Part shown: one piece after another, positions 1-6,000 of the stretch | How positions within the stretch are numbered: the first letter of the stretch is position 1 | Layout of the letters: each line of letters starts with the position of its first letter | From: Escherichia coli | Lineage (GTDB): Bacteria > Pseudomonadota > Gammaproteobacteria > Enterobacterales > Enterobacteriaceae | DNA length: 64,000 nucleotides | Assembly: GCF_041248615.1 (NCBI RefSeq) | Contig: NZ_CP158426.1 | Strand: one strand, 5' to 3' | Program-made: the position numbers

Positions 1-3000
1 GTGGTGAAGTCCAAGTCGATGGTGACCGAAGAAATCGGCGTCAACCATGTGTTGCAGGATGCCGGAATCCAGGTGATCGAAACCGATCTCGGGGAATATA
101 TCCTGCAGTTGGATCAGGATCCGCCTTCGCACGTCGTGGTTCCGGCGATTCATAAAGATCGCTACCAGATCCGCCGCGTGCTGAACGAACGTCTGGGGTA
201 CGACGGCCCGGAAACCCCGGAAGCTATGACCTTGTTCATTCGTCAGAAGATCCGCGAGGATTTCCTCAGTGCCGAAATCGGTATTACTGGCTGTAACTTT
301 GCCGTGGCGGAAACCGGCTCGGTGTGTCTGGTGACCAACGAAGGCAACGCGCGCATGTGCACCACGCTACCGAAAACGCACATTGCGGTGATGGGCATGG
401 AGCGTATCGCGCCGACCTTTGCCGAGGTGGATGTGCTGATTACCATGCTGGCGCGCAGCGCCGTGGGCGCACGTCTGACGGGCTACAACACCTGGCTGAC
501 CGGCCCGCGTGATGCGGACAACGTTGACGGACCGGAAGAGTTCCATCTGGTGATTGTCGATAACGGTCGCTCGCAGGTGCTGGGCTCAGAGTTTCGCGAT
601 GTGCTGCGCTGCATCCGCTGCGGAGCCTGTATGAACACCTGTCCGGCGTACCGCCACATCGGCGGGCACGGCTATGGCTCTATCTATCCCGGCCCTATCG
701 GCGCGGTGATTTCTCCGCTGCTCGGCGGCTATAAAGATTTTAAAGACCTGCCGTACGCCTGTTCTTTGTGCACGGCTTGTGACAGCGTCTGCCCGGTGCG
801 TATTCCGTTGTCAAAACTGATCCTGCGTCATCGCCGGGTGATGGCCGAGGAGGGCATTACGCCGAAAGCCGAGCGACGGGCGATCAAGATGTTCGCCTAT
901 GCCAATAGCCATCCGGGGCTGTGGAAAGTCGGGATGATGGCGGGCGCGCATGCGGCGAGCTGGTTTATCAATGGCGGCAAAACCCCGCTCAAGATTGGCG
1001 CGATTGGTGACTGGATGGAGGCGCGCGATCTGCCTGATGCTGACGGCGAGAGCTTCCGCAGCTGGTTTAAGAAACATCAGGCGCAGGAGAAAAAGAATGG
1101 ATAACCGTACCGCGTTTTTAAACACCATCGCCCAGGCGCTGGGTCGCCCGCTGCGCTTCGAACCGCAAGCGGATGCCGCACCGGTTAACAACTATGCCAA
1201 CGAGCGCCTGACCGAGCTTAGCCCCGAGCAGCGCTGCTCTGCGTTTATCCAGTTTGCCAGCGAAGTGATGCTGGCCCGCTGCGAACTGACCAGCGAGGAC
1301 CAGGCCGCAGACGCGGCACTGCGCCTGTGCGAAGAATTGGGTCAGCAGCCGGTGGTGCTGAGCGGCGACAGCCGGCTGGTGGAGCTGGGCATCACCGAAC
1401 GCTTGCAGCAGGAATGCAACGCCGTGGTCTGGGATCCGGCGCGTGGTAGCGAAAATATTACCCAGGCCGAGCAGGCGAAAGTCGGCGTGGTGTATGCCGA
1501 ATATGGCCTGACCGAGTCCGGCGGCGTGGTGCTGTTTTCCGCACCGGAGCGCGGGCGCTCCCTGAGCCTGTTGCCGGAGTCCTCTATTTTCGTGCTGCGT
1601 AAAAGCACCATCCTGCCGCGCGTGGCGCAGCTGGCAGAAAAACTGCATCAGAAAGCACAGGCCGGTGAGCGTATGCCATCGTGCATTAATATCATCAGTG
1701 GACCCAGCTCGACGGCGGATATTGAGCTTATCAAGGTGGTTGGGGTGCATGGTCCGGTGAAGGCGGTATATCTGATTATTGAGGATTGTTGAGGCAGGAT
1801 GGAAAACCGCTCTGGCGCTGTGGGCCAGAGCGGTATCAACGTTATGCAATCATGCTGATGATCAACACGATTATCAGGCCAACCACGGAGTTTACCAGCT
1901 CCAGCAGACCCCAGGTTTTCAGCGTATCCTTCACCGACAGATCAAAGTAGCCTTTGAACAGCCAGAACGAAGCATCGTTGATATGGGTCAGCGTGTTGGA
2001 GCCAGCCGCTGTTGCCAGCACCAGCAACGCCGGGTCGACGCCCACCAGTTGACCGGTTGCCGGGTCGAGGATTGCTGCGCTAATAATCCTCGCCGCCGTC
2101 ATGGCTGAGACCACGCCCTGACCCGTTGCCAGACGGATCAGCACGGTTATCAACCACGCCATGATGTAGGGAGAAATATTGCCGTGTGACATCAGCATGC
2201 CGATGGTATCGCCGATGCCGGTATCGATAATGGTTTGCTTCAGTACGCCGCCTGCCACTGACTGCCGGAGCAGGGACTGCGCTGACTCTGTAAATCCGCC
2301 GCTCTGTACGTTGGGATTGTTAATCCGAGTAACTAAGTAACACGCTATACCTTGACTCCTTATGCTTACATGCTTGCACATCGTTACGGCACAAAATTCA
2401 ACTGTGGCAAAGCAAGTGCGCTGTTGCGTTCTCTTGGGAAGGTGCGAACAAGTTCCTGATATGAGATCATCATATTCATCCGGAGCGCATCCCAGAGGGA
2501 CATCATGAGCCATCAACTCACCTTCGCCGATAGTGAATTCAGCACTAAGCGCCGTCAGACCCGAAAAGAGATTTTCCTCTCCCGCATGGAGCAGATTCTG
2601 CCATGGCAGAATATGACCGCTGTCATCGAGCCGTTTTATCCCAAGGCGGGCAATGGCCGACGGCCCTATCCGCTGGAGACCATGCTGCGTATTCACTGCA
2701 TGCAGCATTGGTACAACCTGAGCGACGGTGTCATGGAAGATGCCCTGTACGAAATCGCCTCCATGCGCCTGTTTGCCCGATTATCCCTGGATAGCGCCCT
2801 GCCGGACCGCACCACCATCATGAATTTCCGCCACCTGCTGGAGCAGCATCAACTGGCCCGCCAATTGTTCAAGACCATCAATCGCTGGCTGGCCGAAGCA
2901 GGCGTCATGATGACTCAAGGCACCTTGGTCGATGCCACCATCATTGAGGCACCCAGCTCGACCAAGAACAAAGAGCAGCAACGCGATCCGGAGATGCATC

Positions 3001-6000
3001 AGACCAAGAAAGGCAATCAGTGGCACTTTGGCATGAAGGCCCACATTGGTGTCGATGCCAAGAGTGGCCTGACCCACAGCCTGGTCACCACCGCGGCCAA
3101 CGAGCATGACCTCAATCAGCTGGGTAATCTGCTTCATGGAGAGGAGCAATTTGTCTCAGCCGATGCCGGCTACCAAGGAGCGCCACAGCGCGAGGAGCTG
3201 GCCGAGGTGGATGTGGACTGGCTGATCGCCGAGCGTCCCGGCAAGGTAAAAACCTTGAAGCAGAATCCGCGCAAGAACAAAACGGCCATCAACATCGAAT
3301 ACATGAAAGCCAGCATCCGTGCCAGGGTGGAGCACCCGTTTCGCATCATCAAGCGGCAGTTCGGCTTCGTGAAAGCCAGATACAAGGGGCTGCTGAAAAA
3401 CGATAACCAACTGGCGATGTTATTCACCCTGGCCAACCTGTTTCGGGTGGACCAAATGATACGTCAGTGGGAGAGATCTCAGTAAAAACCGGAAATAACG
3501 CCAGAAATGGTGGAAAAAATAGCCTAAATAGGCCGATTCGATGTGTTTGCGGGAAAAAAATCGGCCCAGATCCGCGAAATTTTAATCAGCGAGTCAGCTT
3601 GGGAAGAAATGACCTGCTTATTCGCACCTTCCCTAAATCTTTCCACCCACCCCCTTAAATTTTTCAATAAATGCGCTAATTTTTTGAAAAACAGTCTGTT
3701 TTTTCGTTTTATATTGCGGATTTAAAGGACTGAGTCTGGGCAGTGTCTCGTTTAATTCCGTGCCATTTTCGGTGGCGTATTCGCGTTTTAAAGATGTGCG
3801 AATATAGCGTTTCGCCGCCTCTTCATTGAGATTTTCTTCTTTGATCAAGGCTTCTGCTTCACGTTGCTGTTCGCGTTGAGCAAACGTAAAGAATGCGTCA
3901 ATGATGCTGGCTTTGTCCGGTAAATCATCCAGGTTCGTTTGCTGAATAAAATCGACCACCAGGCCCTCTTTAGCACGGTTCCCCAGGCTTGAACGAATTA
4001 AGCGTTTGACCTCTTCGATCATTTCGCTCTTACCTTTGTTTTGTCTGTTGTGCTCGAAAATCAGACCAAGGATATAATCCAGGTTTATTTCCTGAGATTT
4101 CAGCAAATCGACCTCAAAAACTACGTCATCCCAGTCAGTGGTTGATTTCTCTTTTTTCTCAGCTTCTTTCTCACGGCGCTGCCAGTCGCGAATATCGTTA
4201 TAGGCAGAACGATAATCCTGAATCTTGCGATCAGCAGGGAGACGAATTGTTTGCAATTCAGCGAGCTTTTCATCATCCACATAATGTTCTGCTTTGAATT
4301 TTTCTACTGCAACAGGATCGCTAAGATCGATTTGTTGCAGGGCTTTCAGCGTGGCAAATTCATCATAGTTTTGCAGGATGTTCTCGGCACGCAGGTATTC
4401 ACCAAACAGTTTAACGAAGTCTTTCTTCTCTTTTTCACTTTCAATACTGGCAGGGTCAGGGAACCGTTGTTCCAGTTCTGCAACTACTGCCATAAAGCCG
4501 CGCTTAGCTTCACCAGTAGCAGCATCAGTAAAGCCTTCCATATACTCTGCATAACTCTTTTCTAACACTACATTTTTGGTGTTTTTGTCACCAAACAGCG
4601 TTATGGCATCGATGGTTGAGCGTTCCAGATCGCGGAAAGTGACGATATTACCGAAGGTTTTAGTTGCATCATAAATACGGTTGGTGCGGGAAAATGCCTG
4701 CATCAGGCCGTGAAAACGCAAGTTTTTATCGACGAATAGCGTGTTCAATGTTGGAGCATCGAAACCGGTTAAAAACATCCCCACGACAATTAACAGATCG
4801 ATATCCTGATTTTTAACCCGTTGGGCTAAATCACGATAGTAGTTCTGAAAACCCTTACTGTCGGTGCTGAAGTTAGTTTTAAAATAGCTGTTATACTCAC
4901 GAATTGCAGCGTCAAGAAACTCTTTAGCACTGCTGTCCATTGCGCTGGTATCAAAAGTTTCATCGGATATTTCACCAATCGCATTTTGTTCTTCATTAGC
5001 GGCAAAGGAGAAGATTGTCGCAACACGCAGTGGTTTACAGGTAGTAGATTTATTAGCGGCTTCCTCTTGTAACCGTTTAAACGTCGCGTAATAGGCTTTC
5101 GCGGCATCCACGCTGCTTACTGCCAGCATGGCATTAAAACCTTTGGAGCCAGGGAAAGTACGGTGGGTTTTCTGGCGGAAATTATTCAGAATATATTGCG
5201 TGATTTCCTGAATACGCATGGGATGAAGAAACGCCTGCTGATTTTCAGCCGCACTTAGTTTTTTCTCGTCAGTTTCTGTCTCTAAAGACTTAAACTGTGG
5301 TCGCACATCGTTGTAGTCCACCTTGAATTTGAGCACTTTTTCGTCACGAATCGCATCGGTAATTACATACGAATGCAATTCACGACCAAATACGCTGGCG
5401 GTTGTTTCTGAGCCTAAGGCGTTTTCCGGGAAAATAGGGGTGCCGGTAAAACCAAACTGATAATAGCGTTTGAATTTCTTCTTCAGGTTTTTCTGCGCTT
5501 CTCCAAACTGGCTGCGGTGGCATTCATCAAATATAAACACCACTTGCTGATTATATACAGGCAGGTCGCTTTCTGCTTTCATCAGGTTATTGAGTTTCTG
5601 AATAGTAGTGACGATAATTTTGTTATCGTCCTTATCCAGATTTCGTTTAAGGCCTGCGGTATTTTCCGAGCCGTTGACGCTGTCTGGCGAAAAACGCTGA
5701 TATTCCTTCATGGTCTGGTAATCGAGGTCTTTCCTGTCGACCACAAAGAAGACTTTATCAATAAAGTCCAGCTCTGTTGCCAGACGCGCGGCTTTAAAGC
5801 TGGTGAGGGTTTTACCAGAACCGGTAGTGTGCCAGATATACCCACCGCTTTCCGGTTTTGACCAGTTCTTCGCTGTAAAGGAACTCTTAATTTTCCACAG
5901 AATGCGCTCGGTGGCGGCAATCTGGTACGGTCGCATCACCAGTAGCGTCTGACTACTGTCAAAAACGCTGTAGTTCACCAGAACATTCAGCAGAGTATGT

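Follow-up and report, generated by a model that had tools for sequence, protein, structure and literature searches.

An ISKpn26-like element with unmatched flanks at the hsdR stop codon of an Escherichia coli island: probable origin by recombination between two element copies

How does an intact insertion sequence (IS) come to stand between two 4-bp flanks that do not match, one of them overlapping the stop codon of a restriction gene? The question is raised by a 64-kb stretch of the Escherichia coli chromosome, bases 800,001–864,000 of strain NRZ14408 (NZ_LT599825.1; hereafter the window), in which an IS5-family element lies between the remnant of a gntP permease gene and hsdR. An earlier note on this DNA had read CTTG on the left of the element (start 2437) and CTAA on the right (end 3632), which the junction sequence bears out, and had ascribed the mismatch to recombination, by deletion or inversion, between two IS copies. 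We find that the flanks are chimeric, that the two half-junctions occur independently of each other, that relatives keep an extra 3.8 kb at this place, and that single-nucleotide variants are linked to one side of the element or the other. On these observations, we consider it probable that the element is a hybrid that arose by homologous recombination between two ISKpn26-like copies.

Ends, flanks and identity of the element

The features that meet at the junction are listed in window coordinates.

1..1104, plus strand: lutB/ykgF-like gene, 3′ part (NCBIfam TIGR00273 LutB/LldF, E=2e-184; RefSeq annotation)
1097..1792, plus strand: lutC/ykgG-like gene (RefSeq 'LutC/YkgG family protein')
1842..2255, minus strand: gntP pseudogene, gntP′ (NF007459 GntP, profile positions 311–446 of 447, E=4e-80; RefSeq 'missing N-terminus')
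2256..2321: inovirus-type Gp2 gene fragment, 66 bp (91–94% identical matches inside annotated Gp2 genes of other strains)
2322..2436: orphan left flank, 115 bp, ending in CTTG at 2433–2436
2437..3632, plus strand: ISKpn26-like element of the IS5 family, intact, 1,196 bp, left inverted repeat 2437–2452, right inverted repeat 3617–3632 (RefSeq annotation)
2505..3485, plus strand: IS5-family DDE transposase gene, 326 aa, uninterrupted (NF033581 transpos_IS5_4, profile 1–285 of 285, E=3.8e-109)
3633..3636: CTAA target half-site, canonical for the IS5 group, containing the complement of the hsdR TAG stop
3633..6749, minus strand: hsdR, type IC (EcoR124I-family) restriction subunit, 1,038 aa (end-to-end match to PDB 2w00 HsdR)

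The left junction reads GCGTTCTCTTG followed directly by GGAAGGTGCGAACAAG, the element beginning at 2437, and the right junction reads CTTATTCGCACCTTCC followed by CTAAATCTTTCC, the last base of the element being 3632, where the complement of GGAAGGTGCGAATAAG terminates. The flanks are ...TCTCTTG on the left and CTAAATC... on the right, so that the 4-bp flanks CTTG and CTAA are unmatched. The 16-bp terminal inverted repeats (GGAAGGTGCGAAYAAG) agree at 15/16 positions, bound an element of ~1.2 kb and are the only two matches to such repeats in the window, where 0.01 would be expected by chance. Compared with genomes that carry other left flanks, homology breaks exactly at 2436/2437, and compared with genomes that carry other right flanks, exactly at 3632/3633. 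Since these breaks fix the ends of the element, no re-alignment of the ends yields a matching 4-bp repeat.

On the left, the gntP pseudogene retains only the C-terminal 137 codons and the stop, which agrees with the truncated 3′ fragment of a GntP-family permease described before, and is ~84% identical to the chromosomal gntP found in most E. coli. The Gp2 fragment is joined directly to its broken end and, together with the orphan flank, makes up 181 bp of scar DNA (2256–2436) between gntP′ and the IS. A 288-aa open reading frame (ORF; 1842–2708, minus strand) that begins within the IS and continues into gntP′ is probably an artefact. The same probably holds for a 63-aa ORF (3467–3658, plus strand; RefSeq 'hypothetical protein' WP_306417990.1), which spans the right end of the IS into the hsdR stop region and is a handy RefSeq marker of the junction between IS and hsdR.

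The element had been called IS5, a name that needs correcting. By convention, isoforms in ISfinder share at least ~95% nucleotide identity; the window element matches K-12 IS5A at 1095/1194 positions (91.7%) and hence falls short of IS5 in the strict sense. The name ISKpn26 is taken from the RefSeq/PGAP product name 'IS5-like element ISKpn26 family transposase'. With the K-12 IS5 (ISfinder IS5; the insH copies) the element shares nearly identical terminal repeats (GGAAGGTGCGAA[C/T]AAG), the length class, the IS5-family DDE transposase and the Py-T-A-Pu 4-bp target; it differs in overall identity (91.7%), in the RefSeq family name and in its mosaic sequence. Membership of the IS5 group is thus supported by a full-length DDE transposase and by the terminal repeats, but not by a 4-bp duplication at the window copy. 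IS positions 364–697 (window 2800–3133) form an internal tract of 334 bp that is identical to IS5, in which the window copy departs at 6–7 sites from the four further ISKpn26-like copies in the alignment. The element thus combines ISKpn26-like with IS5-like sequence in a mosaic, which suggests gene conversion between IS5 and ISKpn26 copies.

The lack of a duplication is not intrinsic to this IS variant. Three other copies have perfect duplications: CTAA on both sides of a copy in an autotransporter gene, CTAG on both sides of a copy beside a P4-type primase gene, and TTAG on both sides of a copy between a bhsA-like gene and rpsF. The autotransporter and P4-primase copies are 99.9% identical to the window element. 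Since perfect 4-bp duplications accompany 3/3 other copies, the missing duplication in the window is secondary; the 4-bp duplication is a property of the ISKpn26-like element that was lost here. The published IS5 target consensus is Py-T-A-Pu, and the 24 known targets tallied from ISfinder comprise CTAG (15), CTAA (3), TTAG (3), CAAG (1) and others (2) (PMC5493358). The right flank CTAA is, as the earlier note held, a typical IS5 target under this consensus. Read on the other strand, the left flank CTTG gives the rare target CAAG, so that the left junction could still have been made by transposase. An absent duplication is usually the result of IS–IS recombination or of adjacent deletion (PMC11708052), and the loss at the window copy is an IS-centred secondary rearrangement, not an unusual insertion.

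Half-junctions, undeleted relatives and linked variants

Population searches were performed on 5,426 complete E. coli genomes. The whole junction (1700–4400, 2.7 kb) is present in 34 genomes at 98.7–100% identity and full coverage, from human, poultry, pig, frog and water isolates. Each half is more widespread than the whole: the left half-junction (gntP′ through CTTG into the IS) occurs in 86 genomes and the right half-junction (IS into CTAA-hsdR) in 212. On its right side, the left half-junction has at least three partners, namely hsdR (34 genomes), a porin gene (at least 7 genomes) and an MBOAT gene. On its left side, the right half-junction has at least seven contexts among 13 genomes sampled, given here with the flank next to the IS.

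gntP′, flank CTTG (window type)
Truncated IS66-family element, flank CTAA (9 genomes)
Upstream region of an hsdM pseudogene, flank TTAG (21 genomes)
Dimethyl sulfoxide-reductase-like cluster, flank TTAG
IS3/phoH region, flank TTAG
LacI-family gene, flank CTAG
IS copy with its left part deleted

The full-length copies read at the hsdR junction elsewhere all have a canonical Py-T-A-Pu left tetranucleotide (TTAG in three contexts, CTAG and CTAA); none of these is a true duplication of the native hsdR flank, and the window-type CTTG alone is non-canonical. We considered the arrangement in CRE1540, with CTAA on both sides of the IS, as an ancestral duplication, and rejected it, as the left CTAA is part of the IS66-family element, further copies of which remain aligned across this base. 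At its IS-proximal end in CRE1540, the IS66-family element shows no IS66-type terminal repeat. Under a Py-T-A-Pu preference, two half-sites agree by chance in ~1 in 4 cases. Some IS–hsdR genomes have TTAG on the left of the IS and strain 504239 has TTAG on its right, and these might be the two halves of one original duplication; the one IS-free homologue fetched for this idea has a different IS adjoining.

For the left flank, no IS-free version was found in near or distant search modes: the orphan 115 bp occur only in the 86 IS-bearing genomes, and the last 22 bp have no exact match in 100,044 species-representative genomes. Of the scar DNA, the 66-bp Gp2 fragment alone has relatives elsewhere. 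For the right flank, the IS-free native site is preserved in strain NT1F31, which reads ...TTGTTACTA CTAA ATCTTTCC.

Two further loci bear on the left half. In strain 504239, the gntP′–IS left junction is followed by TTAG, the MBOAT gene, IS1 and argF-xynR-yagH-yagG, in an order inverted relative to K-12, which implies a large inversion or translocation with its breakpoint at the IS. Plasmid p1 of EC09 (126 kb) carries a lutC′-gntP′ piece, 95.8% identical to window 1800–2223, beside IS26 and then higBA; the plasmid has thus captured the same chromosomal scar, with a different gntP′ breakpoint.

The DNA missing from the window is retained in relatives. In eleven genomes, 3,813 bp separate the same IS from the CTAA of hsdR, as read in 2452 and 17MR471 and, for nine more, determined by coverage of the segment. 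The order in these porin-type genomes is lutABC-gntP′-...CTTG, IS, CTAA-TAATCC, porin gene, IS3 fragment, transposase fragment, IS1B, 148 bp of native hsdR 3′ flank, and hsdR. The empty porin site reads ...TTCTTTT CTAA TAATCC, and the porin-type IS copy is itself chimeric; in strain HL15, TTAG stands to the left of the IS and CTAA-porin to the right. The relative orientation of hsdR and lutC-gntP′ is the same in porin-type genomes and in the window. The 3.8-kb block is absent from NRZ14408: at least 80% of it is contained in 13 genomes, and NRZ14408 is not one of them. ET300 and FDAARGOS_1298, which have the same junction as the window, are without any other IS5-like copy. From the shared orientation, the absent block and the lack of a second IS in these sister genomes, we conclude that the net change was most probably a deletion and not an inversion. 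Of the two outcomes that the earlier note had left open, deletion is the one that is supported.

Variants within the element trace the two sides to different sources. We aligned six IS copies, from the window, 2452, CRE1540, Ecol_244, K_EC180 and 504239. At IS positions 295–494, the window copy shares 7 variants with porin-type 2452 that are absent from the four others, of which CRE1540, Ecol_244 and K_EC180 share the right flank of the window and 504239 its left flank. IS positions 530–1196 are identical in the window, 2452, Ecol_244 and K_EC180, and the copy in porin-type 17MR471 is one base apart from that in the window. The hsdR side points elsewhere: in its first 2,440 bases, the window hsdR has 1 difference from that of CRE1540, an IS–hsdR genome, and 89–90 differences from those of porin-type 2452 and 17MR471. 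All four IS–hsdR genomes compared agree throughout the first 395 bp of the hsdR flank, where the two porin-type genomes show 5 differing sites. The left third of the IS is thus linked to the left flank and the sequence of the hsdR flank to the right junction, as would be expected of a crossover within 2931–3897. In this interval, which lies inside or just past the IS, no site separates the candidate parents, so that the crossover is bounded and not mapped.

We propose the following course of events. The left end and its flank (lutC-gntP′-Gp2′-...CTTG) would derive from an arrangement in which the IS lies upstream of the porin gene, 3.8 kb from hsdR. The right end and its flank (CTAA-hsdR) would derive from a module common to many genomes, with an IS copy placed directly against the hsdR stop. 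A crossover somewhere in 2931–3897 would have joined the two arrangements; the partners would have been two direct copies on one chromosome, or a resident IS and incoming island DNA. The net outcome would be loss of the segment with the porin gene, the IS3 fragment, IS1 and the native 3′ flank, an IS with unmatched flanks, and an intact hsdR with its own stop. We infer that the joining step was RecA-type recombination rather than transposase action. What a hybrid element should leave behind is found here: each half-junction occurs separately with other partners, and the missing DNA is retained in a relative in the same orientation. The 334-bp IS5-identical tract in the mosaic element further indicates that copies of the IS5 group do exchange sequence.

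Several points weigh against this reading. A genome with the two-copy intermediate was not found among the 5,426 searched, and the right 55% of the IS contains no site that separates the candidate parents. The one-base match of the IS to 17MR471 also fits an in situ deletion in an unsampled porin-type genome with this hsdR allele. Alleles of hsdR are mosaic among strains, so that the near-identity to CRE1540 might stem from an independent recombination event within hsdR. NRZ14408 also has one further IS5-like match outside the window. Finally, ~20 loci out of 212 + 86 were read in detail.

Copies without a duplication that result from IS–IS recombination or adjacent deletion have been described before, for example in the E. 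coli long-term evolution experiment (PMC11708052). They have in common with the present case an intact IS with unmatched flanks, loss of adjacent DNA and separately traceable flank histories. Unlike those laboratory events, the case described here is natural, old and population-wide (34 genomes; 212 and 86 for the halves), and its direction and mechanism are inferred by comparison.

Alternative routes to the same junction

A single IS copy would suffice if transposase had acted from one end. The event would be a one-ended adjacent deletion: starting from a porin-type ancestor, the IS would have attacked CTAA at the hsdR stop with its right end, and 3,813 bp would have been lost; the original left flank would be kept, a new right flank made, and no second IS copy involved. 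We regard this as a possible, if rather unlikely, course of events. It accords with the target preference, in that the new right flank CTAA and the old one, the CTAA upstream of the porin gene, are both canonical; with the single base that separates the window IS from the porin-type 17MR471 copy; and with the two-copy intermediate occurring in 0/5,426 genomes. Adjacent deletions are, moreover, a documented cause of duplication-less copies, the IS5 family included (PMC11708052). It does not account for the hsdR allele at the junction, which is unlike that of the sampled porin-type genomes (89–90/2,440 differences) and like that of other IS–hsdR genomes (1). Nor does it account for the at least six other left contexts of the right half-junction: three such copies, when aligned, are without the left-third variants and are therefore not derivable from a window-type locus by left-end deletions alone, so that, whichever route was taken, exchanges within the IS must have occurred at some stage. 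Of the earlier proposal of a two-copy event, the IS-centred rearrangement stands, and recombination between IS copies is the more probable route, with one-ended adjacent deletion as its main rival.

Inversion between two inverted IS copies would leave the reciprocal hybrid elsewhere in the chromosome, a place that the further IS5-like match in NRZ14408 could in principle fill, and inversions around this IS are seen in other strains (504239 relative to K-12; HL15). We nevertheless consider inversion very improbable. The relative orientation of hsdR and lutC-gntP′ is unchanged in the undeleted porin-type genomes, so that none is needed, the 3.8-kb segment is not present as a block in NRZ14408, and ET300 and FDAARGOS_1298 carry the identical junction with a single IS copy.

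In favour of a simple insertion that either made no duplication or lost it through point mutation, IS5 target choice is not strict, CAAG having been recorded once among 24 known targets. Conversion of CTAA to CTTG, however, requires two substitutions, the sequence on the left is unrelated to the native hsdR 3′ flank of IS-free genomes, and perfect duplications accompany 3/3 other copies. A constructed query for the simple-insertion state, with the native hsdR 3′ flank and CTAA at the left end of the IS, matched 0/5,426 genomes. Simple insertion is effectively refuted.

An assembly mis-join, for which repeated IS copies are classic sites and for which the second IS5-like match in the genome would offer a partner, has next to no probability, as the 2.7-kb junction recurs at full coverage and 98.7–100% identity in 34 independently assembled complete genomes; the comparison with related genomes that the earlier note had called for thus speaks for a real junction.

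The hsdR module and the surrounding island

At the right junction, CTA at 3633–3635 is the complement of the hsdR TAG stop, so that the IS end abuts the stop codon just as the earlier note had it; the protein ends ...GVGGKI. HsdR residues 1–1038 align to residues 1–1038 of 2w00_A, the EcoR124I HsdR (2,263 bits, E=0). The gene keeps its own stop because the target, TTAG on the hsdR strand, consists of the final base of the Ile codon followed by TAG. In place of the native hsdR 3′ flank, the window has the right end of the IS, and the transposase gene is convergent with hsdR. Promoter and terminator scans of the junction and of the native hsdR 3′ flank gave nothing above shuffle expectation. To the right of hsdR, the window continues as follows.

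6871..8064, minus strand: hsdS (ORF list, RefSeq annotation)
8061..9617, minus strand: hsdM (ORF list, RefSeq annotation)
9881..19199: remaining island, with GTPase, Ag43, DUF932, antirestriction, JAB/RadC, YeeU-CbtA and DUF4942 genes (RefSeq annotation)
19124..19199, minus strand: tRNA with CAT anticodon (PGAP tRNA-Ile, ileX; ARAGORN, RefSeq), followed by mug-rpoD-dnaG

The hsdS gene beside the conserved hsdR varies among strains, from 1,152 to 1,281 bp against 1,194 bp in the window, which suggests that different specificity subunits may be carried on the same restriction-modification backbone. The toxin-antitoxin end of the island (YeeU/CbtA, DUF4942; 16554–19199) directly adjoins ileX and is without an integrase at that end; the left boundary and the integrase of the island lie outside the window.

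To the left of the IS, the earlier note had recognized ykgFG and concluded that the rearrangement places them, with a GntP-family 3′ fragment, next to the island. The gene pair at 1–1792 has 82.8% nucleotide identity to K-12 ykgF/ykgG, and homology to K-12 ends at the stop codon of the lutC-like gene; past 1792, the alignment drops to 43% identity. The lutB- and lutC-like genes are enclosed in an island-borne lactate-utilisation cluster (lldP-dld-lutABC), with debris of IS elements and a group II intron around it (RefSeq). The flanks of the pair are dld/lldP and gntP′, and those of K-12 ykgEFG are rclR upstream and ykgH downstream; by identity and by flanking genes, the pair does not belong to the core locus. 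Judged by sequence and gene order, 'ykgFG' are island-borne lutB/lutC paralogues and not the core ykgEFG locus. As the pair is island cargo, the IS does not join core chromosome to island: on both sides it is flanked by mosaic island-type DNA, rich in IS elements, which extends as far as ileX.

Upstream of the window and immediately to the left of the lactate-utilisation cluster, an IS3-family transposase gene beside an IS1414 remnant contains a group II intron (ltrA; NZ_LT599825.1 791272–794761). Elsewhere in the window, a fimbrial usher gene is broken by an IS3-family element (45792–49405; usher pseudogene 45792–48167, IS3 transposase 48177–49405).

The island resembles the mosaic tRNA-linked islands of the CP4-6 / CP4-44 / CP4-57 type, which have the same genes (GTPase, Ag43, antirestriction, RadC/JAB, YeeU-CbtA), are likewise adjacent to a tRNA gene, and carry Ag43 and restriction-modification modules with dense IS scars. 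Unlike those, the island described here lies at ileX, and its cargo comprises a type IC EcoR124I-family hsdRSM system and a lactate-utilisation cluster.

That the junction between IS and hsdR is constant in 212 genomes while its left partner changes is mildly interesting. It is conceivable, though we think it doubtful, that the IS at the hsdR stop serves as a conserved 'recombination handle' bordering an island module with type IC restriction-modification and Ag43 genes; if so, the constant junction would persist since IS homology allows the module as a whole to be exchanged among islands and chromosomal sites. The IS end might also provide the hsdR 3′ end or antisense control of hsdR.

An IS without a duplication, produced by recombination or deletion, is a well-known phenomenon and an ordinary route by which E. 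coli genomic islands are reshuffled. The present analysis adds no new mechanism; it explains one such IS, establishes hsdR as intact and sets right the names given to the IS and to 'ykgFG'. One IS position is a recurrent breakpoint in this family of E. coli islands, knowledge of which aids the reading of structural variation and of assembly graphs.

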